Part shown: piece after piece, positions 7,921 through 48,759 of the stretch
Layout: each line of letters starts with the position of its first letter
Numbering within the stretch: the stretch's first letter is position 1
Assembly (NCBI GenBank): GCA_965222675.1
Contig: OZ244963.1
Location: forward strand, 990,617-1,054,616
Reading direction: 5' to 3'
DNA: 64,000 nt
Source of the DNA: Wenzhouxiangellaceae bacterium
GTDB lineage: Bacteria; Pseudomonadota; Gammaproteobacteria; Xanthomonadales; Wenzhouxiangellaceae
Position numbers and translations under genes: made by a program
The notes under the pieces: generated by a model
Told to the model about the DNA's origin: nothing
Seen by the model: the letters and a program-made list of their open reading frames with translations, nothing else
Database searches by the model: none

Positions 7921-10745
7921 CGAAAGGCGTTTTCGCCACGCGGGCTTCTCCCGCAAGCGCGTAGCGCGGGGCGAAAGGCCTTTGGGGGTTTGTTTTTCGA
8001 CTCCTAAAGCAAGATCAAGAGCGTTTCGCCACGCGGGCTTCGCCCGCTTGCTGGCGAGGTACTTTTGTCAATCGCGACAAAAGTACCCAAAAGCGCTTCT
8101 ACAAGCTGTGCGAACGGAGCGGGGTTGCCCTTCAGGCCGGGGCGCGGCGCAGAAAATCGCTTATCGCGCTGAGACACGAGAAGCTTGTCACGCGCCAGCT
8201 TTCGGCTACCGGATGAGGGCTCGGAGCCCGCGCGGCCCGGTGGGCGATTCGTTGTGATGTGCTGCCGGGCCGGAGCGGATATCGTTCCGCGGCCACCGTC
8301 GGTAGCCTGGAGGTTGCGCTCGACAGCTTCTCCTGAGTCGAGGTCGATCACCGATTCTTGGCGCCGGGACTTTGGCCGAGAAACTCGTCCCTCGATACGC
8401 CCAGCTTCTAGAAAGCGCTTTTGCCTTCTTTTGTCGCGATTGACAAAAGAAGGTCGCCCGCAAGCGCGCAGCGCGGGGCGAAAGGCTTTTCGGGGTTGGG
8501 TTTGGTTCTCGATTTCGAAGCAAGAACAAAAGCGTTTCGCCACGCGGGCTTCGCCCGCTTGCTGGCGAGGTACTTTTGTCAATCGCCTCAAAAGTACCCA
8601 AAAGCGCTTTTCAAAGCGGTGCGAATTGGGCGGGGTTGCCCGTCAGGCCGCGCTGCGGCGCAGAAAATCGCTTATCGCGCTGAGACACGAGAAGCTTGTC
8701 ACGCGCCAGCTTTCGGCTACCGGGTGGGGGATCGGAGGACTACCGGCCTGGGGACGCGACCTTCGAGGTCACTGCCGGGCCGGAGCGGATGTCGTTCCGC
8801 GGCCACCGTCGGTAGCCTGGAGGTTGCGCTTTACAGCTTCTCCTGAGTCGAGGTCGATCACCGATTCTTGGCGCCGCGGCATCGGCCGAGAAACTCGCCC
8901 CTCGATACGCCCCGCTTGTAGAAAGCGCTTTTGCCTTCTTTTGTCGCGATTGACAAAAGAAGGTCGCCCGCAAGCGCGTAGCGCGGTGCGAAAGGCTTTT
9001 GGGGGTTGGGTTTGGTTCTCGATTTCGAAGCAAGAACAAAAGCATTTCGCCACGCGGGCTTTGCCCGCTTGCTGGCGAGGTACTTTTGACAGTCGCCTCA
9101 AAAGTACCCAAAAGCGCTTCTACAAGCGGTGCGAACGGGGCGGGGTTACTCGTGAGACGCGGGCGCGGCGCAGAAAATCGCTTAGCGCGCTGAGACACGA
9201 GAAGCTTGTCACGCGCCAGCTTTCCGCTACCCGGGGTCACTGCGGCGGGCCGCGTCGCCAAACTCCATCCCGTCGCCCCGGCCCCCGAGCCGGGGCCCAG
9301 CGACTTTACGGGCTTCGATCAACGTCGCTGGATCCCGGATCGAGTCCGGGACGACAGAAAAGCCAGGGTCCGGCAACGCAAGAACAAAGGCGTTTCGCCA
9401 CGCGGGCTTCGCCCGCTTTCTGGCGAGGTACTTTTGACAGTCGCCTCAAAAGTACCCAAAAGCGCTTTTGAAAGCGGTGCGAATTGGGCGGGGTTGCTCG
9501 TGAGGCACAGGCGTGGCGCAATGACTCGCTTATCGCGCTGAGACACGAGAAGCTTGTCACGCGCCAGCTTTCGGCTACCGGATGAGGGCTCGGAGCCCGC
9601 GCGGCCCGGTGGGCGATTCGTTGTGATGTGCTGCCGGGCCGGAGCGGACGCGAATCCGCAGCCACCGTGGGTAGCCTGGAGGTTGCGCTTGACAGCTTCT
9701 CCTGAGTCGAGGTCGACCACCGATTCTTGGCGCCACGGCTTTAGCCGAGAAACTCGCCCCTCGATACGCCCCGCTTGTAAAGAGCGCTTTTGCCTTCTTT
9801 TGTCGCGATTGACAAAAGAAGGTCGCCCGCAAGCGCGTAGCGCGGGGCGAAAGGCCTTTGGGGTTTGTTTTTCGAATCCAAAGCAAGAACAAAGGCGTTT
9901 CGCCACGCGGGCTTCGCCCGCTTGCTGGCGAGGTACTTTTGACAGTCGCCTCAAAAGTACCCAAAAGCGCTTCTACAAGCGGTGCGAACGGGGCGGGGTT
10001 GCTCGTGAGACGCGGGCGCGGCGCAGAAAATCGCTTATCGCGCTGAGACACGAGAAGCTTGTCACGCGCCAGCTTTCCGCTACCCGGGTAGCGATCGAAG
10101 ACGATCTGCCCCGGTGGGCAACCGCTCGGGACGCAAGTGCTTCCTGTCGTCGACCATCGACCGGATCCCGCCGTGGGTAACCCTCGAGGTTGCGCTTTAC
10201 AGCTTCTCCTGAGTCGGGGTCGACCACCGATTCTTGGCGCCACGGCCTTAGCCGAGAAACTCGGCCTCGATACGCCCCGCTTGTAAGAAGCGCTTTTGCC
10301 TTCTTTTGTCGCGATTGACAAAAGAAGGTCGCCCGCAAGCGCGTAGCGCGGGGCGAAAGGCTTTTCGGGGTTGGGTTTGGTTCTCGATTTCGAAGCAAGA
10401 ACAAAGGCGTTTCGCCACGCGGGCTTCGCCCGCTTGCTGGCGAGGTACTTTTGACAGTCGCCTCAAAAGTACCCAAAAGCGCTTCTACAAGCGGTGCGAA
10501 CGGGGCGGGGTTGCTCGTGAGATGCGGGCGTGGCGCAATGACTCGCTTAGCGCGCCGAGACACGAGAAGCTTGTCACGCGCCAGCTTTCCGCTACCCGGG
10601 GTCACTGCGGCGGGCCGCGTCGCCAAACTCCATCCCGTCGCCCCGGCCCCCGAGCCGGGGCCCAGCGACTTTACCGGCTTCGATCAACGTCGCTGGAACC
10701 CGGATCGAGTCCGGGACGAAAGAAAAGCCAGGATCCGGCAACGCT
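7921..10745. repeat. Non-coding array of ~190-bp units in alternating orientation (period ~510 bp), six forward copies and four-plus inverted copies
   Basis: Forward unit (gcgtttcgccacgcggg...gagacacgagaagcttgtcacgcgccagctttcggctacc) at 8021-8210, 8532-8721, 9042-9231, 9390-9579, 9895-10084 and 10407-10596. Inverted relative (ggtagcctggaggttgcgct...cgcccgcaagcgcg.agcgcggggcgaaaggc) at 8301-8486, 8811-8996, 9670-9855 and 10176-10361, plus a fragment at 7921-7980. ORFs occur in all frames on both strands with junk composition. Confidence 0.9.
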
Positions 10746-16503: not shown

Positions 16504-16507
<4 letters not shown>

Positions 16508-16839
16508 CCGGACGACAACTGCAGGATCGGCCAGAAGAAGAAACCCAGCACGACGGCCGCGACGATCACGGCCGCCAGCAGTCGCATCGGGTCGATCCGA
16601 GGCTTCGCGTTTCCGGCTTCCGTACGGGCCCGCTCGGAGTAGTCCGCCTGGAACCGGTCGAAGGCCTCCTTCGCCCTCGGATACTGGTCATTGTCGCGGA
16701 CCCAGATGCTGCCCGCGCTCAGGCCGAAGGCGGTCGGCGGCAGCTCGTACCAGTCCACACCGAGCTCATCGAGCATCGTGCGCACGCCGTCGGCTTCCGC
16801 ATCGGGGACGTGGCGCAGATTCATCAGTCGTCGTGCCAT
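16504..16839 (-). CDS. Small conserved protein, DUF6164-like (C-terminal TM anchor)
   Basis: 111 aa. LMNLRHVPDAEADGVRTMLDELGVDWYELPP...GSIWVRD followed by a C-terminal hydrophobic helix. The pattern is recalled from DUF6164-type proteins; this is a from-memory call. Confidence 0.55.
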
Positions 16840-17111
16840 GGCGGCATTGTAGCGATTTTCTCACTCCACCCTTGCGGCGGGCCGGACGCTGGTCGATCCG
16901 GGCGCTGTGCACGGGTTGGGGAACGCACGGCCCGCACGGCCCGAAATCACGACGACAACGACAACTGTGAGCGGCGTGTTCGCATTGGTCAAGCTGGTCA
17001 TTCACCCTCCGAGAGCTACTTTCCTTCGGCCGAATCGCACCGTGGTTCGAATCGAACCGGGACGTCGAAGCGGTCGGTCATTCGCTCACTACTCGAAAGA
17101 GGGACAACCCC

Positions 17112-17864
17112 ATGGATATGCCGACACTGACAATGGGCCAGTTCAGCCTGGTCTTCAACGTGTTTTCGCTGACGCTGGCCGCGTTCGCGGCCTCGACCAT
17201 CTTCTTCTGGATGCAGCGGGACCGGGTGGCACCCGAGTTCCGGACCGCGCTGACGATCACCGGCCTGGTCACGTTCATCGCCGCGTACCACTACCTGCAG
17301 ATCATGCTCGACTGGAAATCGGCCTTCACCCTCGTCGACGGCGCCTACGTCGCATCGGGGACGCCGTTCAACGACGCCTACCGCTACGTGGACTGGTTGC
17401 TGACCGTGCCGCTCCTCCTGATCGAGCTGCTGCTCGTCATGCGCCTATCCCGGGCCGAGACCGTCAGCAAGGGCTGGTTGCTCGGCGGACTCGCCGCGCT
17501 GATGGTCCTGCTCGGCTATCCCGGCGAGATCTCCAGCGACGACGGCACCCGGTGGCTGTGGTGGTCCCTGTCGATGATTCCGTTCCTGATCATCCTGTAC
17601 CAGCTGTTCGTCGGCCTCGGCGACGCCATTGCGCGTCAGCCAGCTGAATCGCGGGGCCTGGTCAGCGCAGCGCGCTACCTGACCGTGGTGTCGTGGCTGT
17701 TCTATCCGATCGTGTTCGTGCTGCCGATGCTGGGGCTCGAAGGTGCGGCGGCGGAAACCGCGCTGCAGGTCGGCTACAGCATCGCGGACCTGGTTGCCAA
17801 GGCAGTGTTCGGCCTGCTGATCTACACGATCGCAGTCCGCAAGACCGAAGCACAGGCAGCCTGA
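17112..17864 (+). CDS. Proteorhodopsin/xanthorhodopsin-family light-driven proton pump (DTE motif)
   Basis: 250 aa with seven TM segments. RYVDWLLTVPLLLIELLL supplies Asp acceptor, Thr and Glu donor in PR spacing. A His lies in AAYHYL. The retinal Schiff-base Lys sits in YSIADLVAKAVFG. Confidence 0.9.
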   Translation: MDMPTLTMGQFSLVFNVFSLTLAAFAASTIFFWMQRDRVAPEFRTALTITGLVTFIAAYHYLQIMLDWKSAFTLVDGAYVASGTPFNDAYRYVDWLLTVPLLLIELLLVMRLSRAETVSKGWLLGGLAALMVLLGYPGEISSDDGTRWLWWSLSMIPFLIILYQLFVGLGDAIARQPAESRGLVSAARYLTVVSWLFYPIVFVLPMLGLEGAAAETALQVGYSIADLVAKAVFGLLIYTIAVRKTEAQAA

Positions 17865-17928
17865 TCGCCTGACGAGGGCGCCGGCCCGGCCCCCGGGTCG
17901 GCGCATCTCGTATCCGCATTCCGGCCCG

Positions 17929-18936
17929 ATGCATCCTGCCCCGTCCACTCGGTCGATCGACCCAGGCGCCGCGGAGCGCCGAGCCCGCCGCCGCTCCTGG
18001 CAACGGCTGCATGCCCGCATGGCGCTGTTCCTCATGGCGGCCGCGCTGCCGCTGACCGGTGTCCTCGACGGCCTGTCCATTCCTGCCCAGATCAACCTGG
18101 TGCTACTGCCCATCGCCCTGCTCGGCGTGCTGCACGGGGGCGCCGATCCCTGGGTCGGGCATTCGCTGATGCAACGCTACGCGGGGTTCGGTGCGACGAG
18201 CGTTTTCTACACCGCCTACCTGTCGTTGATGGGAATCGTGCTGCTGCTCTGGTGGTGCTTGCCGATGGCGACGCTGGCCGCCTTCCTTGCGCTTTCCGTC
18301 GTGCACTTCGGTGTCCAGGACGCGATGACCTTCGGCGTTCCTCGCCGGCCCCTGGACCTCTGCATACTGGGCGCCATCCCGGTGCTCGGGCCGGTGGTCG
18401 GTAACGCCGAGACCGTCGCGGTGCTGTTCGGCTGGTTGGCCGGCGTCGACTCGATTGTCCTGGCGGATCGGTTGACCTGGGTGGCCCGTCCTCTGGCGTG
18501 CCTGTGGCTGATCGGCATCGGCATGGTGGTCAGCCGCGTTGCCCTGGAGCAGGGCCCGGGCCGGGCCAGGCGCCTGGCGCTTGCCGTGGCCGTGCTGGTG
18601 CTGGTCATGACGCGGCTCCCACCGCTGATCGCCTTTGCGCTCTATTTCTGCCTGCTGCACAGCTTCGGACACCTGCTCGAGATGGCCACGTCGCGCAGCG
18701 GACCCTGGACGCGCTGGACGGTCCGCCAGTGGGCGATGCGGCTGTGGCCTGCAACGCTGGGCGCGATCTCGCTCGGCCTGGTCGGTGCGCTGCTGCTTTC
18801 CGCGGTCGATGCGGCATCGGCCGCACCCGGAGCCCAGCAGGTGCTCGTTCTGTTCTGGGGCCTGGCCGCCCTCACGGTTCCGCATATCATCCTGCACGCG
18901 GCCTGGGCCCGGGCCGCCGCCGGCAGGCGAGCCTGA
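17929..18936 (+). CDS. blh: Brp/Blh-family beta-carotene 15,15'-dioxygenase (retinal synthesis)
   Basis: Multi-TM protein directly downstream of the rhodopsin, with spaced conserved His motifs (VLHGGADP, VVHFGVQD, LLHSFGHLLE, VPHIILH). The true start may be the internal MALFLMAAAL. Confidence 0.8.
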   Translation: MHPAPSTRSIDPGAAERRARRRSWQRLHARMALFLMAAALPLTGVLDGLSIPAQINLVLLPIALLGVLHGGADPWVGHSLMQRYAGFGATSVFYTAYLSLMGIVLLLWWCLPMATLAAFLALSVVHFGVQDAMTFGVPRRPLDLCILGAIPVLGPVVGNAETVAVLFGWLAGVDSIVLADRLTWVARPLACLWLIGIGMVVSRVALEQGPGRARRLALAVAVLVLVMTRLPPLIAFALYFCLLHSFGHLLEMATSRSGPWTRWTVRQWAMRLWPATLGAISLGLVGALLLSAVDAASAAPGAQQVLVLFWGLAALTVPHIILHAAWARAAAGRRA

Positions 18937-19030
18937 ACCCCGCTACAATTCCCCGCAGTCGGTCCGTTTCGACGACGATGCGGTCCCGAGGGGGCCGAGC
19001 GATCCAAACCATAAAGAGGGAGCTCGAGAC

Positions 19031-19243
19031 ATGGACAACCTCACCAAACTGCTGGTCGATCTGGGCGGTGACGCCGAACTCGAAGCGCGGTACCGAAGCG
19101 ACCCCGATGCGGTGCTTGCCGAATACGGGCTGTCCGATGAAGCGGCCGCGGCGATGAAGAAGGGTGACCTGGATGCATTGCGCAAGCTCAGCGGGCTGGA
19201 CGAACTGCGCCTGACCAACTCCACGGTCAAGGCCTACCGCTAG
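19031..19243 (+). CDS. 70-aa helical peptide, candidate split-borosin precursor (LigA-like leader domain plus short C-terminal tail)
   Basis: MDNLTKLLVDLGGDAELEARYRSDPDAVLAEYGLSDEAAAAMKKGDLDALRKLSGLDELRLTNSTVKAYR. A GAGGGA RBS-like sequence lies ~10 nt upstream of the ATG. It starts 94 nt after blh and ends 18 nt before the next gene. The ORF track embeds it in a longer junk ORF starting at 18635. Confidence 0.55.
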   Translation: MDNLTKLLVDLGGDAELEARYRSDPDAVLAEYGLSDEAAAAMKKGDLDALRKLSGLDELRLTNSTVKAYR

Positions 19244-19261
19244 GCCGGTTCGGCTTCGTCC

Positions 19262-21031
19262 GTGCAGTTCCCGCTTCCGGTCGTTCTGCTGGCCGTTCTC
19301 CTGGCCAGTCTACCGGTCGTCGGGACCGGCTCGGCGATCGCCGATGTCGAGCTGTCGTCGCGGATCGATACGATCGAGCAGCTGCACCACGAACGCCCCT
19401 GGCAGGAATCGCAGGCCGCGATCGATGCGCTCCGCGCCGACGGCCTGGATGGCGCCACGCCCGACCAGCGAGCGCGACTCGACCTGATGGAGGGACGCAA
19501 CCTGGTCCTGGCGGATCGCTTCGACGACGCCATGGACCGTCTCGATCGGGTGCTGTCGCGGCCGGTCGGCATCGATCTCAGGCTCCGGGCGCTCGAACTC
19601 GCGGCAAACGCTTCCGGGATCGACCAGCAATACGCGCTGGCGTTCAATTACCTGTACGAGGGCCTGAAGCTGCTTCCCGACGCCCGGGACCCCGGGTCGC
19701 GAGCGGGTCTCCTGGTCCTGGCCGCGCGCTTCCATTCACTGGCCGGGGAGCAGGCCCTGGCCATGGAATACATCTCCGAGGCCCTGGCGGCCGCCGAGGA
19801 AAGCGGCGATGACCGGACCCGCTGCTTTGCCGAGCAGGATCTGGTCTTCCAGCAGCTCCGGGTCGGCCTGGCCGACGCCGCCTCCGAAAGCGCGGATGAA
19901 ATGTGGCAGAGCTGCCAGGAAAGCGGCGACCCGGTCCTCCAGGGCACCGGGATGATGGCGATGGGCGCGGCGCTGCTCGAGGCCGGACGCCACGACGAGG
20001 CCGTCGGCTGGCTGGAGCGGGCCATCGCGCAGCACCGCGCCAGCGAATTCGCGGTCGGGGTGGCTGAATCGACGTATTACCTGGGTCGCGCGCTGCTGGC
20101 GGCCGGCGATGCCGAGGGCGGAACCCTGCGCCTGCTCGATTCGGTGAGCTACTTCGAGTCGCGCGAGGACTGGCAGAGCCTGATCGAACTCCACGCCACC
20201 CTGGCCGACTCGTTCGAACAACGCGAACTGCCGGGGCGGGCGCTCGACCACCTGAGAGCGCAGTTCGAGGCCGACCGGCGTTTCAACGACATCCAGCGCA
20301 GCCTCCGCATCGCCTACCAGCAGGCCGAGTTCGAGAACCAGCGCCAGCAGCAGGAGCTGGCCATGCTGCGGCAGCGCAACCAGCTGTTCGAACTCGAACG
20401 CCAGGCGCAGAGCTCACGCCAGAAGGCGCGTACCGTCGCCATCGTCATGGCGGCCGTGATCGGGGTCCTGCTGATCGGCCTGCTGGTCCGCTTCCGGGCC
20501 GACCGGCGGCGCTTCCGTCGCCTGTCCGAGCGCGATGGCCTGACCGGGCTGCTCAACCACAGCCGATTCCACCGTGCGGCCAGCAGCGCGCTGGAGCGAA
20601 GTCGCGAGAATGATCGTCCGTGCACCCTGATCGCGGCCGACGTCGATCTGTTCAAGCAGGTCAACGATCGCTTCGGGCACCAGGCCGGTGACGCGGTGCT
20701 GTCCTATCTCGGTCAACTGTTGCGCGAAGTCTTCCCGCCGCCCGGCATCGTCGGCCGCGTCGGTGGCGAGGAGTTCGCCGTGTTCCTGCCCGATCAGAAC
20801 CGCTTGCAGGCGCGCCAGCGGGTCGAAGAACTGCGTCGCCAGCTGCGGCCGGTGTCCGTGGGGGATTCGCAGATCGCCGTGACCCTGAGTTTCGGGCTGG
20901 CCGAAGCGCGGCGCGAGCGCCGCCTGGAGCGCCTGCGTTCGCGCGCGGACGATGCGCTGTACCGGGCCAAGCGATCCGGCCGCGATGAACTGATCGACGC
21001 CGCGGAACTGGCCGACGGCGACGAGCCGTGA
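19262..21031 (+). CDS. Membrane diguanylate cyclase with periplasmic TPR-like sensor domain
   Basis: 589 aa. Signal/TM at the N-terminus, a ~380-aa helical-repeat region, a coiled coil, a TM segment (TVAIVMAAVIGVLLIGLLV) and a GGDEF domain (DGLTGLLNH, DVDLFKQVND, active-site GGEEF). No RxxD I-site is seen just upstream of GGEEF. Confidence 0.85.
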   Translation: MQFPLPVVLLAVLLASLPVVGTGSAIADVELSSRIDTIEQLHHERPWQESQAAIDALRADGLDGATPDQRARLDLMEGRNLVLADRFDDAMDRLDRVLSRPVGIDLRLRALELAANASGIDQQYALAFNYLYEGLKLLPDARDPGSRAGLLVLAARFHSLAGEQALAMEYISEALAAAEESGDDRTRCFAEQDLVFQQLRVGLADAASESADEMWQSCQESGDPVLQGTGMMAMGAALLEAGRHDEAVGWLERAIAQHRASEFAVGVAESTYYLGRALLAAGDAEGGTLRLLDSVSYFESREDWQSLIELHATLADSFEQRELPGRALDHLRAQFEADRRFNDIQRSLRIAYQQAEFENQRQQQELAMLRQRNQLFELERQAQSSRQKARTVAIVMAAVIGVLLIGLLVRFRADRRRFRRLSERDGLTGLLNHSRFHRAASSALERSRENDRPCTLIAADVDLFKQVNDRFGHQAGDAVLSYLGQLLREVFPPPGIVGRVGGEEFAVFLPDQNRLQARQRVEELRRQLRPVSVGDSQIAVTLSFGLAEARRERRLERLRSRADDALYRAKRSGRDELIDAAELADGDEP

Positions 21032-21849
21032 CCGGCGATCCTCCGGCGGCCGCGGGCGGCGGCGAACTTGTCGTGGTCGGTTGCGGCATCCAGCTCGGCC
21101 GCCACATTTCGCGCCGGGCTGAATCCGAGATCCGCGTCGCGGACCGGGTGTTCGCGCTGGCCGATGCCTTCGCGATGGACTGGCTGACATCGATCCGGCC
21201 GGATTGCATCGGGCTCGGCCGACATTACCGCGAGGGTCGCCCGGATCACGATCGGCGCCGGGCCTATCGAGCCATGGAGCGCGAGCTGGTCGACGCGGTG
21301 CGCGATGGGGCCCGGGTCTGCGCAGTGTTCTACGGGCACCCCGGAGTCTTCGCCGACGTTCCCCACGGCGCGATCCGAGCGGTTCGCGATCTGGGTCTGC
21401 CGGCCCGGATGGAACCCGGCATCTCGGCCGACGCCTGCCTCTATGCGGATCTCGGCCTCGACCCGGGACGCTCGGGGGTCCAGTCGTGGGAGGCGACCCA
21501 GTTCCTGGTCAGGGACTGCCGACCGGACCCGTCGAGCCTGCTGATCCTGTGGCAGGTCGCGCTTGCCGGCGACTTGTCGCTGACCCGGTTCCATGCCGAG
21601 CCGGCCGGTCTGGCGCTGCTGGTCGAGAAGCTTGGCCGGTGGTATCGACCGGAGACCGAGGTCATTCTCTACGAGGCCGCGCAGCTGCCGATCGAACGAT
21701 TTCGCGCCGAGCGGATTCCCCTGTCGGCATTGCCGGACGCTCGCTTCAAGGAGTACACGACGCTGGTGGTGCCGCCTGCGCAGGACGCGCCGGCCGATGT
21801 CGAGTGGCTGGCCCGGCTGGGTGCTGCGCCGGACGCACTGGACGGGTAG
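21028..21849 (+). CDS. Tetrapyrrole-methylase-fold SAM methyltransferase, candidate borosin-type peptide alpha-N-methyltransferase
   Basis: 273 aa. Motifs LVVVGCGIQLGRHIS, VCAVFYGHPGVFADVPHGAIR, MEPGISADACLYADLGLDP and VQSWEATQFLV. From memory these match the OphMA-family blocks FYGHPGVF / LPGVSAEDCLFADL / YEASDFL rather than the GxGPGDP corrin-methylase type. The GTG start overlaps the upstream TGA (GTGA at 21028-21031). Confidence 0.65.
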   Translation: MTGDPPAAAGGGELVVVGCGIQLGRHISRRAESEIRVADRVFALADAFAMDWLTSIRPDCIGLGRHYREGRPDHDRRRAYRAMERELVDAVRDGARVCAVFYGHPGVFADVPHGAIRAVRDLGLPARMEPGISADACLYADLGLDPGRSGVQSWEATQFLVRDCRPDPSSLLILWQVALAGDLSLTRFHAEPAGLALLVEKLGRWYRPETEVILYEAAQLPIERFRAERIPLSALPDARFKEYTTLVVPPAQDAPADVEWLARLGAAPDALDG

Positions 21850-21861
21850 GGCGGGGACAAG

Positions 21862-21892
21862 GCGATTGCGCTCCGCGTGGGAGCGCAATTGC
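21862..21892. terminator. Hairpin between convergent genes (possible bidirectional terminator)
   Basis: attgcgctcc / ggagcgcaat 10-bp stem with a gcgtg loop, between the methyltransferase (+) and the DUF3617 gene (-). There is no clear T-run. Confidence 0.4.
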
Positions 21893-21940
21893 GGGTAGCC
21901 GAACCCGGGGTCCGGGGGACGCCGGGTCAGGGCCTGCGGA

Positions 21941-22378
21941 TCAGCAGTCGCCGGTGCGCTTGCCGGAGATCTCGACCGACATGGTCATCGATCCCATGGC
22001 CGAGTCCATCTGACCGTCGACCTTGCCGGTCATCGTGTCGCCGTCGAAGGACATGTCGGCGTTCATGGTCATCGCGCTGCCGTCCGGGCTCGGGCAGGTC
22101 ATGGTGAAGCTCATGCCGTCGGCGCTGATGTCCTTGTCGGCGACTTCGCATTCCTCGTTGTCGGACAGGAAGGCTTCGCCGTCGCGAATGTCTTCCGGCG
22201 TGATGCAGTTCGATTCGGTCTGGGTCTGCGGCGGCATGGAGCCTTCCGGCATGTTCGGAATATTCAGCGAGACCGTGCTGGTGGTTTCCCACATGCCGGG
22301 CTCGATGTTGGGCTCCTGGGCCACTGCGGAAAGGGAAAGGCTGGCCACGGCCAATGCGGTCAGGCTCTGCTTGAACAT
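21941..22378 (-). CDS. DUF3617-like periplasmic protein
   Basis: 145 aa from MFKQSLTALAVASLSLSAVAQE (signal peptide). GMWE...NCITPEDI...C.V....DG....M.C and a C-terminal RTGDC match the pattern recalled for DUF3617. The track extension to 22822 is Arg/Pro junk. Confidence 0.65.
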   Translation of the reverse strand: MFKQSLTALAVASLSLSAVAQEPNIEPGMWETTSTVSLNIPNMPEGSMPPQTQTESNCITPEDIRDGEAFLSDNEECEVADKDISADGMSFTMTCPSPDGSAMTMNADMSFDGDTMTGKVDGQMDSAMGSMTMSVEISGKRTGDC

Positions 22379-22535
22379 AAGAGAATTCTCCTTGAAGATC
22401 GGGCCGCGGGGATCGCCGGAGATCGCAAGGGATTGCCAGGGATCGGCCGCGGGTGAACGCATGCCGCGCCGTCGAGCGCGGCAGTGCAGTGACCAGAATA
22501 CGCGAATCGGCGCGTCCGCGTGCCAGTCCGGACGA

Positions 22536-22817
22536 TCAGCCGCCCTCGTCCTCGATCCTCTCGCGCTGGCGGGCAGCGGCGTCGGCCAGGTTGTCCTCGA
22601 CCCCGCGCGCCCGCTCGATCGCCTGCTGGTGCGGTTCGAGCAGGCCTGCGTCCGGCCGCCTGTCCGGGTCGGCCTCCGCATCGGCCTCGGGCTGGCGGCC
22701 ATCGTCGGTGCAGCCGGCGGCCAGGAACAGCGACGGGAACAGCAACGAGAACAGCAGGGGGACCGCCAACAGCAGCCGCTGCGGGAGGGAGGGGGTCGAA
22801 GTCGGGTTGCGGCGCAT
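22536..22817 (-). CDS. Small lipoprotein
   Basis: 93 aa. Lipobox LFLAAGC after a hydrophobic signal, then an acidic low-complexity mature part. Confidence 0.5.
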   Translation of the reverse strand: MRRNPTSTPSLPQRLLLAVPLLFSLLFPSLFLAAGCTDDGRQPEADAEADPDRRPDAGLLEPHQQAIERARGVEDNLADAAARQRERIEDEGG

Positions 22818-22920
22818 GGCAAGGGCTCCTCGGATTCGGTGAACGTTCGCGCCTCACTCTACGCCCATCGCCGTCCGCGAGCCAGTGCGCGCCCGAGCGC
22901 GCCCGGCTAGACTTCCCCGC

Positions 22921-31307: not shown

Positions 31308-32171
31308 TTACAGATCGTTGCGCAGAATCACGTCTAGGCCATGGCAGTCGCGCCGGCTCTGGGCATGGGACAGTCGGTCGCCGGATACCTGGTGGTCGTA
31401 GAACCACAGGCTGCCGGCGCCGTTCTGGCTGCTGCAGTCGAGGAAGCCGTCGGAACAGCTGTCGAGCCAGTTCTGGGTGATCTCCAGGCCAACCTGGTTG
31501 AAGTAGCCGCCGCAGTAGGCGGCCCCATCCCAGATCGCCGAACGCACGTCGGTGCCGACCACGTTCCAGAAGCCCTTCGGCAGGCTTGGGCGACCCGGCG
31601 TACCTAGAAGCCAGCTGGAGTTGTAGTAGGCCATCCAGCTCGGTTGCTGCATCCGAACCGCGTCGTTCTGGTAGCCGAGCAGCCAGCCCAGCGCCGACTC
31701 GAACACGTTGCCCTGCATCACCGCTTCGGCCAGCGGCGTGCCCGTCGACGACGGCGCGAGCGCGTTCACCCAGCGGGTCTTGCTGATGATGTTCGGGTAG
31801 CGGCTGTCCCAGGTCGGGTTCGACATGATCCAGCGCATCACGTTGCCGCCGTTGGAGTGGGTCAGCACGACCAGGTCGGTGATCCCGCGGGCGTTGATGA
31901 AACTGGTCAGCTGGCCGGCCAGGCAACCTGCGGCCTGGCTGTTCCACATGTACTGCTCGAAGTCGCAGTTGATGACCGTGTAGTTGGCGCTGTTCGACAG
32001 GCCCTGGCGGACCGAGTTGACCATGTCCGTGGTCCAGTAGTCGTTCAGCGCGTCGGTCTGTTTGCCGGTGCCGTGGACGAACGCGACGCCGGTCGCGGAC
32101 CACGCGGAGCTGGCGAACAGCAATAGCGCGGCCGCCAAGACGACGCCGGGAAGGGCGATCCTGAATGTCAT
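31308..32171 (-). CDS. Secreted alpha/beta-hydrolase (lipase/esterase-like)
   Basis: Start at MTFRIALPGVVLAAALLLFASSAWS after a GAGGAAG RBS. AFVHGTG and a VVLTHSNGG nucleophile-elbow-like motif, plus several Cys pairs. The track extension to 32417 is rejected. Confidence 0.65.
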   Translation of the reverse strand: MTFRIALPGVVLAAALLLFASSAWSATGVAFVHGTGKQTDALNDYWTTDMVNSVRQGLSNSANYTVINCDFEQYMWNSQAAGCLAGQLTSFINARGITDLVVLTHSNGGNVMRWIMSNPTWDSRYPNIISKTRWVNALAPSSTGTPLAEAVMQGNVFESALGWLLGYQNDAVRMQQPSWMAYYNSSWLLGTPGRPSLPKGFWNVVGTDVRSAIWDGAAYCGGYFNQVGLEITQNWLDSCSDGFLDCSSQNGAGSLWFYDHQVSGDRLSHAQSRRDCHGLDVILRNDL

Positions 32172-32613
32172 GGTTTCTTCCTCTTTTGTTTTTCCTTGCC
32201 GGGCGGGCTCGATCCTGCGACGAAAGCGGTGGTGCCGCAAACGGGCGGAATCAGCGGTCCGGCGTCCCTGAATCGGGACGGGCTCCCATGGACTGGATGT
32301 GCCAGTCGCCCCGTCCCCGCCGCCACGATGTGACGGCCGCCACAGTATAGGGAGCGCGCGGCGGGGATTCAAATGGGGCTCAAAAGGAGGCAGGGGCAAG
32401 GGGAGGGCCGAGGACACCTACAGGGGAGGGGCGAGGACACCTACCTATCAGGCGTAAGTTATTTCCTACGTGGTGGATGTCTCCGTTGTTGTGTCTGTTG
32501 TTATTGTTAAGACGGATTTCCAAAGTGTGTACCACAGCGCCTCGTGAGTACGGCTTGCAGTAAGAGGGTCAGCTAATTATTATTCGCTTCGTGTCCGGTG
32601 GGGAGATAAATCT

Positions 32614-33123
32614 GTGCTAACTGCTCTTGGTTCCCGGACGTTGTTGGTTGCATTATTTTTGTTATCAGGTTCTGTATTTGCTCAATTTAGCGACTTTGCA
32701 TCAATAGAATTTAACCCGTCAGATCCAGTTCCAGGCGAAGTTATCGACGGAGAGTTCACGAGCGGGTGCTTTTCGCCTGCACCGAACAGTGATGGCCTTT
32801 TTTTTGATGTCTCTTCCAGAGATGGCGTGATTTATATTGATCTGGTTTCAAATTTCTTGGTTTCCTGTTCGGCATTTCCGGTGCCTTTCACATTTCGAAT
32901 CCCTGGGCAACAAGCTGCAGTTCACCCCGTGATCATAAGCTTGGTTGATAGTAGTATCTCCTTCCCGGCTGATGAATCGGAGCGTCGTTTTTCACACTAC
33001 AGAATCATCCGCGTCGGAGCTGGCCCCATTGAGGTCAGCGCTCTTAGCTTATGGGCAGTTGCTCTAATGATATCTGTAGTCGCTGCTCTCGCCCTATTTA
33101 GGATTTATTCCACTACCGCCTAA
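32614..33123 (+). CDS. Secreted hypothetical protein on an AT-rich islet, with IPTL-CTERM-like tail
   Basis: 169 aa with a GTG start. Signal peptide LLVALFLLSGSVFAQ. The C-terminus PIEVSALSLWAVALMISVVAALALFRIY reads as motif plus TM helix. Its base composition is strikingly lower in GC than its surroundings. Confidence 0.55.
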   Translation: MLTALGSRTLLVALFLLSGSVFAQFSDFASIEFNPSDPVPGEVIDGEFTSGCFSPAPNSDGLFFDVSSRDGVIYIDLVSNFLVSCSAFPVPFTFRIPGQQAAVHPVIISLVDSSISFPADESERRFSHYRIIRVGAGPIEVSALSLWAVALMISVVAALALFRIYSTTA

Positions 33124-33547
33124 AATTCTGCTTGGATTTAAGACACCCACCAATCGAGACGAGCAGTGGCAATTCTCTGATCGAGTCTCGATATCTTGCA
33201 TTGCTTGGCCGAAGTGCAGTTTCAGCGATTCACCCCAGGCACGATTTCGGCCTGTTCGTGAGAAGCCGACCATGGGCATGCGCCCGGAAGACTCTCCGGA
33301 ATGCGAGCGAGATCGGTGAGCCAGGCTCTCGCTACCCGAACAGCTGCGAGGCGAGGGTGTGCCCGTTCAGGAACTTTCGTCCGAACTCCTGAGCCAGCTG
33401 CCGGAGTGCCGCGACCGGCCCGAGCACGCTTGGTGAGCGGCGTGCTTGTGGCTTGGAGAGGAATTCCAGCACGCCTTCCGGCCGCGCATTCGTAAGCTTC
33501 CCCCCAGCTGACACATTCCCGAAGTAGAGATTTCTGGCACCATTCCC

Positions 33548-33829
33548 TTGGAGGAGAACGCCATGAAGAAGTCTCGATTCACCGAACACCAGATCGTTTC
33601 CATCCTGAACGAAGCCGAGTCTGGGGTACCCGTCAAGGACGTTTGCCGGAAGCATGAGATCAGCTCGGCGACCTACTACAAGTGGAAGTCGAAGTACGGC
33701 GGGTTGGACGCCTCGGAACTCAAGCGTCTGAAGGAGCTGGAAGCGGAGCTGTCGCAGTACAAGCGCATGTATGCCGAACTGGCCCACGAGAACTACGCAC
33801 TGAAGGACGTCATCGCAAAAAAGCTCTGA
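33548..33829 (+). CDS. IS3-family transposase OrfA (HTH)
   Basis: MKKSRFTEHQIVSILNEAESGVPVKDVCRKHEISSATYYKWKSKYGG plus a leucine-zipper-like C-terminus, the classic IS3/IS407 OrfA. Confidence 0.9.
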   Translation: MEENAMKKSRFTEHQIVSILNEAESGVPVKDVCRKHEISSATYYKWKSKYGGLDASELKRLKELEAELSQYKRMYAELAHENYALKDVIAKKL

Positions 33830-34674
33830 CGGCCGCCGAGAAGCGCGAGGTTGCGCGCACACTGGTGGTCGAGCACGAGCTATCGATCCAGCGGTCCTGC
33901 CAGGCGGTGGGCCAGAGCCGGTCGGCCTGGTACCGCCCGCTGCCCGATCCGCTGTCCCGAGATCAGGAGATCGTGGACGCAATGACGGCTTACTTCGAGG
34001 CGTTCCCGCGTCGGGGCTTCTGGAAGTGCCGGAAGCACTTGCGAGCCGAGGGGCGGCCCTGGAACCACAAGCGCCTGTGGCGCGTGTACTGTGCGCTCGG
34101 GCTGAACCTCCGGCGCAAGACCAAGCGCCGGCTGCCAAACCGGGAACGCATCCCGCTGACAGTGCCGCTGGGGCCGGACCAGGTCTGGTCGGCCGACTTC
34201 ATGGCCGATGCACTCTACTGCGGCGTTCGATTCCGGACATTCAACGTGCTGGATGACTTCAACCGCGAGGGCGTTGCGATCGAGATCGATACGTCGATTA
34301 CAGGAGAGCGGTTGATCCGGCTGTTCAGCCAGATCGAAGCCGAACGGGGTCTGCCGGCAACGCTGCGCACCGACAACGGTCCTGAGTTCATCGGTCAGGC
34401 CTTCCTGGACTGGGCTGATGACCACGGTATGACGGTGCAGCACATCCAACCGGGCAAGCCCAATCAGAATGCGTTCATCGAGCGTTTCAATCGAACCTAC
34501 CGCGAGGAGGTGCTGGACCTGTACCTGTTCGAAGATCTTGATCAGGTCCGCGAAGAAACGCATCGCTGGCTACGGCGCTACAACGAGTCCTGGCCGCACG
34601 ACTCGCTGGGCGATCTGAGCCCGCTGGAGTATGCCAAACGAGCCAGAGTCTCTACTTCTGAACTGTCGCCTTGA
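33817..34674 (+). CDS. IS3-family transposase OrfB (DDE integrase core), expressed by -1 frameshift from OrfA
   Basis: The slippery AAAAAAG at 33817-33823 lies just before the orfA stop, and the downstream frame is -1. The DDE region includes VWSADFM, FNVLDDFNREG, LRTDNGPEF, PGKPNQNAFIERFN and RTYREE. Confidence 0.85.
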   Translation, partial: KKALTAAEKREVARTLVVEHELSIQRSCQAVGQSRSAWYRPLPDPLSRDQEIVDAMTAYFEAFPRRGFWKCRKHLRAEGRPWNHKRLWRVYCALGLNLRRKTKRRLPNRERIPLTVPLGPDQVWSADFMADALYCGVRFRTFNVLDDFNREGVAIEIDTSITGERLIRLFSQIEAERGLPATLRTDNGPEFIGQAFLDWADDHGMTVQHIQPGKPNQNAFIERFNRTYREEVLDLYLFEDLDQVREETHRWLRRYNESWPHDSLGDLSPLEYAKRARVSTSELSP

Positions 34675-48320: not shown

Positions 48321-48759
48321 ATCGATTTCCTCGTTGTCCGGGCCGTCCCGCACGCTGCGGTGCGCTGGATCGTGCCCGTTCGGTTTAGGCCTCCGCAGTT
48401 CCCCATCCGACGACCGTCGGGCCCTGTTCAGAGCCGGGACGGCAACCCCGCCGGATGTGACGGAATGCGTGTGTAGTAGTTCGGGGCGGGCCCGGACGCC
48501 GCGGCTGCGGCGCGCGCGAGAGTGTTGCCCCGATTCTTCGTTCGCCGGCGAGCACCAGGGCCCGACAGCAAATCCGGTCGATTATAGCGTGGAAGCGAAG
48601 GTTCGGGCAAGATCGGCGATGATTTCCGGCGGCAACTTCCCGGGCGCCGCGGCGCGGCTGCGGCCGCTGGCCGGGCGGGGTGGATTAGAATGCGCCTCGC
48701 GGGCTTCGAGGGCCCGCGCACTCGTTCACGGTTCTCACCCCACCACCGCAGGAAGATCG

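Follow-up and report, generated by a model that had tools for sequence, protein, structure and literature searches.

A predicted split-borosin operon with a membrane diguanylate cyclase gene in a relative of Wenzhouxiangella

The locus described here is very probably a three-gene operon consisting of a split-borosin precursor, a membrane diguanylate cyclase, and a SonM-type methyltransferase with predicted activity on the peptide backbone. It lies in a 64,000-nucleotide stretch of DNA (the window) that contains exactly one borosin binding domain (BBD) and one borosin N-methyltransferase (NMT). A preliminary description had presented ORFs of 70 aa and 273 aa as the precursor and enzyme of a split borosin, and the coordinates, motifs, and sequences of both were recovered as it gave them. 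It had also regarded a GGDEF gene between the two partners as an undescribed context, which does not hold: the son cluster of Shewanella oneidensis includes the GGDEF gene SO1480 (PMC10549244); no other accessory Pfam domain is as frequent in split borosin clusters as GGDEF (56%); and TPR-TM-GGDEF-NMT fusions, mostly from Xanthomonadales, have been named Type X (Imani et al., bioRxiv 10.1101/2021.12.24.474128). The definition of the family and its association with GGDEF come from PMC8429565, PMC10549244, and bioRxiv 10.1101/2021.12.24.474128, and more than 1,600 borosin pathways have already been catalogued. The window locus is an ordinary example of a catalogued borosin type known from many bacteria. 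It adds one Type IV split borosin, from a relative of Wenzhouxiangella, and would not surprise a borosin specialist. The near-obligate linkage of such modules to an apparently active (predicted) diguanylate cyclase bears on what bacterial borosins are for. The features of the locus and of its upstream neighbors are as follows:

17112-17864, Bac_rhodopsin gene, upstream of the precursor
17929-18936, blh/BCD gene, upstream of the precursor
19013-19022, + strand, Shine-Dalgarno-like AAAGAGGGAG, read from the sequence, its end 8 nt upstream of the precursor ATG
19031-19192, + strand, precursor residues 1-54, predicted BBD (SonA-type helical leader), from phmmer, profile, AF2, and Foldseek
19193-19243, + strand, precursor residues 55-70 (GLDELRLTNSTVKAYR) and TAG stop, linker and putative core, positioned as the SonA core
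19262-21031, + strand, TPR-TM-GGDEF diguanylate cyclase, 589 aa, from a Pfam GGDEF match (E 8.6e-36) and a weak TPR_12 match
21028-21031, + strand, GTGA, 4-nt overlap of the methyltransferase GTG start and the cyclase TGA stop, read from the sequence
21028-21849, + strand, predicted SonM-type borosin peptide alpha-N-methyltransferase, 273 aa, GTG start, from phmmer against the PDB and residue conservation

The 273-aa protein is a homologue of the SonM/OphMA-type peptide alpha-N-methyltransferases, and its activity is predicted accordingly from sequence. It carries the motifs ELVVVGCGIQLG, FYGHPGVF, MEPGISADACLYADLGLDP, and SWEATQFLV. Its best match by phmmer among 177,635 PDB sequences is SonM (E 4.7e-72, residues 12-271), with dbOphMA and OphMA at E about 1e-33 and MroMA at 2e-29. 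At E<=10 the PDB matches are exclusively borosin N-methyltransferases, and no tetrapyrrole methylase in the PDB was matched even at this threshold. The residues of SonM with assigned roles, namely catalytic Y58, R67, and Y71, cofactor residue Y93, and lock residues F99 and W166 (PMC8429565), are identical in the window enzyme, as are G94-H95-P96, E146, and Q167; Y58/R67/Y71/Y93/F99/E146/W166/Q167 correspond to Y67/R76/Y80/Y102/F108/E155/W175/Q176 in window numbering. SonM E173 is replaced by D. The residues shared with SonM are identical or near-identical throughout 83 aligned sequences, with Y67, R76, Y80, Y102, F108, and W175 kept in 80-83 of the 83. The YGHP and DCLFAD motifs are the basis of the antiSMASH BorosinMT rule (bioRxiv 10.1101/2021.12.24.474128), a criterion judged here by motif alignment to SonM, not by the published HMMs; the FYGHPGVF and SADACLYADL segments of the window enzyme align with YGHPGVF and SAEACLWADL of SonM.

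The product of the small ORF at 19031-19243 (+ strand, ATG start, 70 aa) is predicted to be a SonA-type precursor, as the preliminary description had proposed. It matches SonA directly by phmmer in the same PDB set (E 8e-8, residues 2-56), which, like the match of the enzyme to SonM, lies far outside what chance would give. With a profile built from 25 of its relatives, SonA is found at E 1e-16, and the alignment runs ungapped across residues 1-55. True LigA subunits reach E 0.7-0.9 at best against the profile of the precursor family. A single-sequence AF2 model of low confidence (mean pLDDT 59.9) places five helices at residues 3-12, 15-23, 25-31, 36-43, and 47-54 and leaves the C-terminal tail disordered; the top 29 PDB matches of this model by Foldseek are all SonA chains, at weak E values of 0.08-1 and TM of 0.5-0.7. 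Exact-sequence look-ups found neither this precursor nor the methyltransferase on record. Three close homologues found by a word-indexed search are 91-94% identical and lie on contigs with the same synteny, and the ORF is kept end to end at about 74 loci.

A tail of 15-16 aa follows the invariant G55 of the precursor, at the place where SonA has its core, DSSYQSYLVISHGNGD. By analogy with SonA, this tail (residues 55-70) is the expected site of backbone N-methylation and the putative core. Two alignments of the tail are plausible, differing by a one-residue shift in which positions match SonA L63 and I65. Among 74 related precursors, G55 and I/V66 are found in all 74, T62 in 67, N63 in 68, A68 in 60, and Y69 in 69, and conservation in the tail equals or exceeds that in the leader (mean top-residue frequency 0.74 vs 0.69). 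The window tail is polar (TNSTVKAYR), as opposed to the hydrophobic YLVIS segment in SonA. The core of this clade, T-N-x-[TI]-[IV]-x-A-Y, is polar and strongly conserved, unlike that of SonA, and is one for which there is no reported product or methylation pattern.

Between the two partners lies the cyclase gene. Hydropathy and motifs suggest a hydrophobic N-terminus (aa 1-29), a TPR region (~30-386), a TM helix (387-414), and a GGDEF domain (424-575), and from hydropathy the TPR region (about aa 30-386) is presumed to be periplasmic. The active-site motif reads GGEEF at aa 501-505, and the protein has no RxxD I-site. The cyclase stop TGA occupies 21029-21031, and the methyltransferase is read in another frame; the 4-nt GTGA overlap suggests translational coupling of the two genes. 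A promoter and terminator scan of 16900-22900 detected neither a promoter nor any signal that would mark the ends of the operon, and because of this the transcription unit is delimited by gene spacing alone.

To place the locus, we compared it with the 80 closest genome loci. Precursor, TPR-GGDEF, and NMT occur in this order on the same strand in about 70 of them. A small LigA-like ORF accompanies the methyltransferase homologues at about 70 loci; the preliminary description had named a lack of such neighbors as a refuting outcome. Of the remaining loci, most are truncated at a contig end, and three (L016, L063, and L067) differ from the plain arrangement. All-vs-all clustering of flanking ORFs from the 80 loci uncovered nothing common to more than ~16 of them beyond the three operon genes and shadow ORFs; no protease, exporter, immunity, or cation-efflux gene is conserved near the operon, and no cation-efflux gene was seen adjoining the operon in the window. 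The preliminary description had also singled out the adjacent proteorhodopsin gene. We rejected rhodopsin as a functional partner: in related Wenzhouxiangella loci, recQ, DUF6164, and the borosin operon are found with neither rhodopsin nor blh. The adjacency is lineage-specific synteny, not functional association, and the rhodopsin and blh genes lie outside the module.

Cyclase and methyltransferase are fused in about 62 of the 80 loci, into one polypeptide of 820-848 aa with a short linker. The two are split at 14 loci, mostly from Wenzhouxiangella and related MAGs, Wenzhouxiangella being the closest named genus and placed in Chromatiales by NCBI. A stop-start overlap, either 4-nt GTGA or 1-nt ATGA, is present in 9 of these 14 genomes and MAGs (L001, L002, L003, L009, L017, L019, L029, L043, and L066), and in the remaining five the methyltransferase start follows after a short gap. 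In a SonM-rooted NJ tree, which carries no support values, the split forms fall together at the base and the fused forms group as a single derived clade. The Type X criterion is fusion of the NMT C-terminal to GGDEF in one polypeptide; in the window a TGA closes the cyclase and the methyltransferase has its own ORF, read in a different frame, an architecture that makes the locus Type IV, not Type X. It has the attributes of Type IV: a SonA-homologous BBD, a short C-terminal core encoded beside the NMT, and a stand-alone single-domain NMT. The window locus is therefore a sister of Type X in the unfused, Type IV form. It represents the state from which the Type X fusion appears to be derived, and a single indel would convert the overlap into a fusion.

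The analysis itself shows which known proteins the genes are related to, which residues are conserved, how the genes are ordered, and how split and fused forms are distributed; that methylation occurs, where it occurs, how the tail is released, and whether the module is functionally coupled to c-di-GMP are matters we infer beyond these. The first gene would encode the 70-aa precursor, of which the first ~54 residues form a SonA-type BBD and the last ~15 (LDELRLTNSTVKAYR) the core. The second would provide a membrane diguanylate cyclase whose TPR domain is presumed to be periplasmic. The stop of this second gene overlaps the start of the third, which would encode a SAM-dependent methyltransferase of the SonM type. 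If it works as in the solved SonM-SonA complex, this methyltransferase would dock the helical leader with the tail threaded into the active site, where one or two backbone amide nitrogens would be methylated, most likely within N63-V66, through an imidate intermediate stabilized by Y67, Y80, and R76. The tail may then be freed, as shewanellamide A is, by a housekeeping protease.

Two other readings of the genes themselves were weighed. The 273-aa protein could be an ordinary tetrapyrrole methylase accompanied by a small ORF that is either spurious or a LigA-like fragment with no relation to it: TP_methylase (PF00590) is its sole Pfam match (61.9 bits, cut-off 27.8), the small ORF falls just 0.6 bits under the Pfam LigA (PF07746) cut-off (24.7 vs 25.3 bits), and GC-rich DNA yields many spurious ORFs. 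Against this, the enzyme matches SonM and no tetrapyrrole methylase in the PDB, as given above, and does not group with these enzymes; its top NCBIfam match, precorrin-3B C17-MT, scores 15.1 bits where the model requires 391. The small ORF is preceded by a strong Shine-Dalgarno sequence and combines conservation across loci with its SonA profile match, and there are no LigB or cobalamin genes beside the precursor or methyltransferase. PDB, NCBIfam, and profile searches together refute this reading, to which we assign practically no probability, and the suggestion that the enzyme is borosin-type and not a corrin/siroheme methylase is upheld. Alternatively, the split between cyclase and methyltransferase could be an artifact, a frameshift introduced by sequencing or assembly into a gene that is really a Type X fusion, given that most close relatives are fused and that gaining or losing one base at the junction would bring both into a single frame. 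This is highly improbable, since the overlap recurs in the independent split genomes and MAGs listed above and also in two near-identical metagenome contigs (genes called 6111 vs 6114 and 5584 vs 5587), and since split forms are not scattered among the fused forms in the tree.

A further rival concerns role, and is compatible with the proposed enzyme chemistry: the module may be mainly a c-di-GMP signaling device and not a secreted natural-product pathway. We consider this tenable but somewhat unlikely. It could take the form of a methylated C-terminal peptide that possibly acts as an autocrine or quorum-type ligand of the periplasmic TPR domain of the cyclase, or of a dimeric methyltransferase that, with precursor or cofactor state, possibly controls cytosolic GGDEF dimerization and activity. 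In favor of a signaling role are the three genes kept together at most loci and the frequent fusion of cyclase and methyltransferase; the GG[DE]EF motif, intact in 77 of the 77 cyclase homologues examined, none of which has an I-site; a core conserved at least as strongly as its leader, unlike the hypervariable cores of many RiPPs; the lack of a conserved protease, exporter, or immunity gene nearby; and shewanellamide A, which shows no antibiotic activity and whose role is unknown (PMC10549244). Conversely, this evidence is contextual throughout, the locus encodes no means of export, the periplasmic placement of the TPR region comes from hydropathy alone, and co-inheritance in one operon does not separate the hypotheses. 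A PDB search with the whole cyclase found solved homologues of the GGDEF domain alone, and none for the N-terminal 400 residues that would hint at a ligand; the literature on a characterized link between GGDEF and TP-methylase, or on SO1480, likewise held nothing beyond the borosin papers themselves. More specifically, the methylated tail peptide (or methylated small protein) could serve as a signal dedicated to the TPR-TM-GGDEF cyclase encoded with it, making the module a self-contained peptide-to-c-di-GMP circuit, which we judge to be unlikely. If it were so, borosins of this clade would be signaling molecules and not antibiotics, and the Type X fusion would reflect a physical complex of enzyme and cyclase that the split form in the window assembles from translationally coupled subunits.

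The predicted split-borosin operon can be set against four known systems. SonM and SonA of S. oneidensis MR-1 (Type IV; PDB 7LTC and 7LTE; product shewanellamide A) share with it a discrete methyltransferase of ~265 aa, alignable from end to end and with the same catalytic and lock residues, and a discrete precursor of ~70 aa with an ungapped N-terminal BBD alignment and a C-terminal tail of ~16 aa. The Shewanella cluster likewise has a GGDEF gene and no dedicated protease. Its gene order differs, running SonM (SO1478), SonA (SO1479), GGDEF (SO1480), and cation efflux (SO1481), whereas in the window the precursor comes first, then GGDEF and then NMT, the last two with overlapping stop and start codons. 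The window host is a relative of Wenzhouxiangella with high GC, and the core sequences are unrelated (LDELRLTNSTVKAYR in the window vs DSSYQSYLVISHGNGD in SonA). LigA of the protocatechuate 4,5-dioxygenase LigAB has a distant helical-fold resemblance to the window precursor, because of which Pfam and database names for SonA call such proteins LigA-like; unlike LigA subunits, which are defined by the Pfam threshold and pairing with LigB, the window precursor scores below that threshold and has no LigB partner nearby, its neighbors being the blh and GGDEF genes. The fungal OphMA, dbOphMA, and MroMA (Types I-III) share the methyltransferase fold, YGHPGVF, and D(A)CL(F/Y)AD with the window enzyme (E about 1e-33 to 1e-29), but they carry enzyme, clasp/BBD, and core together in a single autocatalytic polypeptide, whereas in the window these parts are encoded by separate genes. 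The closest relatives by sequence are of Type X, with methyltransferase identities of 56-65%; in the accessible part of the preprint that names the type, validated methylation is reported for Types V-IX and not for Type X (bioRxiv 10.1101/2021.12.24.474128). Type X loci share the upstream SonA-type precursor, the TPR-TM-GGDEF partner, and the T-N-x-[TI]-[IV]-x-A-Y tail, and they differ from the window in that cyclase and methyltransferase are fused there and remain separate ORFs here.

A 70-aa precursor ORF, a cyclase gene and a methyltransferase gene form the following module, whose two outer ORFs and 273-aa motifs are as reported in the preliminary description.

19031-19243, + strand: precursor ORF, 70 aa, ATG start, product MDNLTKLLVDLGGDAELEARYRSDPDAVLAEYGLSDEAAAAMKKGDLDALRKLSGLDELRLTNSTVKAYR
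19262-21031: TPR/GGDEF protein, 589 aa, between precursor and methyltransferase
21028-21849, + strand: methyltransferase ORF, 273 aa, GTG start, motifs ELVVVGCGIQLG, FYGHPGVF, MEPGISADACLYADLGLDP and SWEATQFLV
21028-21031: GTGA start-stop overlap of 4 nt between methyltransferase and cyclase

The main inference drawn from these ORFs, that a split SonA-type precursor is paired with a borosin N-methyltransferase (NMT), is upheld by database comparison. In a search of all PDB sequences, the 273-aa protein has as its best match SonM, the enzyme of the Shewanella oneidensis split borosin pair SonM/SonA (E 4.7e-72, residues 12-271), followed by dbOphMA, OphMA and MroMA (1e-34 to 1e-29). Beyond these four no PDB sequence matches at E<=10; CobA, CysG, CbiF and Dph5, the proposed comparators, are absent, and the protein does not group with tetrapyrrole methylases. 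It scores 61.9 bits against Pfam TP_methylase (cut-off 27.8) and 15 bits against the NCBIfam precorrin-3B methyltransferase model (cut-off 391). We aligned the enzyme with SonM and 81 methyltransferase domains from 80 relatives' loci. The key residues of SonM established by mutagenesis and crystallography, Y58, R67, Y71, Y93, F99, W166, Q167 and E146 (PMC8429565), are identical in the window enzyme (Y67, R76, Y80, Y102, F108, W175, Q176 and E155), as is the GHP motif, whereas SonM E173 is replaced by D. Exactly one methyltransferase of SonM type is present in the window.

The proposed likeness of the 70-aa product to the LigA-like leader of SonA was likewise borne out. SonA chains match the protein at E 8e-8 among PDB sequences, and a profile built from 25 related precursors finds SonA at E 1e-16, gap-free over residues 1 to 55, as against E 0.7-0.9 for genuine LigA dioxygenase subunits. 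Pfam LigA itself scores 24.7 bits, slightly under its cut-off of 25.3, and NHLP/TOMM-type RiPP leader models (NCBIfam) resemble the protein weakly, below threshold. A single-sequence AF2 model of low confidence (mean pLDDT 59.9) places five helices in residues 3-54 and leaves the tail disordered; in a Foldseek search with this model the top 29 PDB matches are all SonA chains, at weak E-values of 0.08 or worse. The window holds exactly one such borosin binding domain (BBD), and a ribosome-binding site, AAAGAGGGAG, ends 8 nt 5' of the precursor ATG.

Across 74 precursors aligned from the clade (73 distinct sequences), tails are strikingly alike, with the consensus ...[ST]-G-L-x-[DE]-G-Q-[FY]-A-T-N-[HS]-[TI]-[IV]-[KR]-A-Y-[DE]; the window precursor and its split relatives carry ...S-G-L-D-E-L-[RH]-L-T-N-S-T-[VI]-K-A-Y(-R). 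Conservation is complete at G55 and I/V66 (74/74 each) and high at Y69 (69/74), N63 (68/74), T62 (67/74) and A68 (60/74), the mean top-residue frequency being 0.74 over residues 62-69 versus 0.69 in the leader. SonA is methylated at L63 and I65, and mature shewanellamide A is its C-terminal 16-mer (PMC10549244). A MAFFT alignment sets these two residues opposite S64 and V66 in the window precursor, a gap-free alignment anchored on G55 opposite N63 and T65; methylation is therefore predicted no more closely than to the span N63-V66.

Neither the methyltransferase nor the precursor has an identical entry in the sequence collections queried. Among 185,579 species-representative genomes, 392 relatives of the enzyme were found. 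The best, at 75% and 73%, are from Wenzhouxiangella sp. XN79A and a Halomonas-labelled MAG; next, at 56-65%, come other Wenzhouxiangella, Luteimonas, Pseudoxanthomonas, Rubrivivax and many Lysobacterales MAGs. In the NCBI taxonomy Wenzhouxiangella belongs to Chromatiales. Among the 80 loci retrieved, about 70 have precursor, full-length TPR-TM-GGDEF homologue and methyltransferase in this order on one strand, consistent with the expectation that homologues would adjoin small LigA-like ORFs. Most exceptions are loci cut by contig ends, and loci L016, L063 and L067 deviate from the plain arrangement. Cyclase and methyltransferase share one 820-848 aa reading frame in about 62 of the 80 (the Type X architecture, a TPR-TM-GGDEF-NMT fusion), a linker just a few residues long joining the aligned domains. 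Fourteen loci are split as in the window, from Wenzhouxiangella spp., Chromatiaceae and Rhodanobacteraceae MAGs and the two nearest relatives. A frameshift artefact behind the split was considered and rejected: in 9 of these 14 the methyltransferase start and the cyclase stop overlap by 4 nt (GTGA) or 1 nt (ATGA), and the same overlap recurs in two near-identical metagenome contigs, so the split is genuine. In a neighbor-joining tree built from the methyltransferase domains, with SonM as root and without support values, the split forms branch basally as a paraphyletic group and all fused forms fall into a single derived clade, which suggests a single fusion event from an arrangement like that of the window.

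Individual loci show further variation. A Dokdonella MAG (L078, 994-6714) carries two complete tandem copies of precursor and cyclase-NMT. Natronospira elongata (L063, 2037-2932) has three BBD-like ORFs upstream and a cyclase homologue seemingly without most of the GGDEF domain. Extra TPR-GGDEF paralogues occur in two Wenzhouxiangella loci (L007, 2204-3859; L016, 2496-8863), and in L016 the precursor follows the methyltransferase.

The GG[DE]EF motif is kept in 77 of 77 cyclase homologues, and an RxxD I-site immediately upstream of it was found in none of the 77. Two hydrophobic segments flank the TPR region in most of them, in agreement with a periplasmic TPR domain as predicted in a published survey (bioRxiv 10.1101/2021.12.24.474128). 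The precursor and cyclase ORFs lie in one frame, separated only by a TAG stop and six codons (19241-19264). The cyclase GTG start at 19262 lacks an obvious Shine-Dalgarno sequence; the gene may be expressed through coupling or re-initiation, or its true start may lie elsewhere.

Genes adjoining the module are the following.

16504-16839, - strand: DUF6164 protein, between recQ and the rhodopsin gene
17112-17864, + strand: bacteriorhodopsin-family gene, 250 aa, upstream of the module
17929-18936, + strand: Brp/Blh beta-carotene dioxygenase gene (blh, retinal synthesis), upstream of the module
21941-22822, - strand: DUF3617 protein, convergent, just downstream of the methyltransferase

Read by eye, the rhodopsin has a Schiff-base lysine in ADLVAKAVFG and carries RYVDWLLTVPLLLIE, which we take to be a DTE proton-pump motif whose spectral-tuning position is Leu. 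Only the two closest genomes and near-identical metagenome contigs share the gene order recQ, DUF6164, rhodopsin, blh, borosin operon, DUF3617, PLD-like, acyl-CoA dehydrogenase; in two other Wenzhouxiangella genomes (loci L007 and L077) recQ and DUF6164 accompany the operon but the rhodopsin and blh genes are absent. The proximity of the rhodopsin gene is therefore incidental, and the cassette looks like a lineage-specific insertion or loss. DUF3617 adjoins the operon in the closest relatives only and DUF6164 flanks it also in L007 and L077; neither is conserved over the wider set. Across the 80 loci no protease, exporter, cation-efflux or other gene is kept with the module. Elsewhere in the window, G+C falls to 0.61 at 8001-10000 and 0.57 at 32001-34000, versus about 0.69; longer ORFs there gave no meaningful Pfam match, only a single sub-threshold low-complexity one, and these stretches may be horizontally acquired or non-coding. 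The sole Rfam match above gathering score is a t44 RNA (48384-48490, - strand; 47.4 bits, cut-off 44), and the 64 kb contain no tRNA genes.

By analogy with the solved and kinetically characterized SonM-SonA system (PMC8429565, PMC10549244, PMC11751858), the enzyme would most likely bind the helical leader of the precursor as a 2:2 complex, clamp down on the tail and SAM, and methylate one or two backbone amides, proceeding from N to C, after which a housekeeping protease would free the C-terminal peptide. Papers on borosins describe the native role as elusive (PMC10549244). A signaling role of the module with the cyclase is plausible because of their near-obligate linkage, repeated fusion, the intact active site, the conserved core, the absence of export or immunity genes, and the lack of antibiotic activity of shewanellamide A (PMC10549244). 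Why borosin enzymes are so closely tied to diguanylate cyclases is a real question, but the window alone makes it no more tractable than do the many loci already catalogued.

The split borosin module was thus correctly identified and well reasoned in the preliminary description, but the GGDEF gene in its setting, put forward there as undescribed, has precedents in the literature. The S. oneidensis son cluster comprises SonM (SO1478), SonA (SO1479), a GGDEF protein (SO1480) and a cation-efflux pump (SO1481) (PMC10549244). In the survey of >1,600 bacterial pathways, GGDEF is the commonest accessory Pfam domain (56% of clusters), and Type X is defined there as TPR-TM-GGDEF with the methyltransferase fused at the C-terminus, mostly in Xanthomonadales (bioRxiv 10.1101/2021.12.24.474128). 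Rather than a new kind of system, the module is a further member of Type IV (stand-alone NMT with SonA-type precursor) adjoining Type X; its host is a relative of Wenzhouxiangella.
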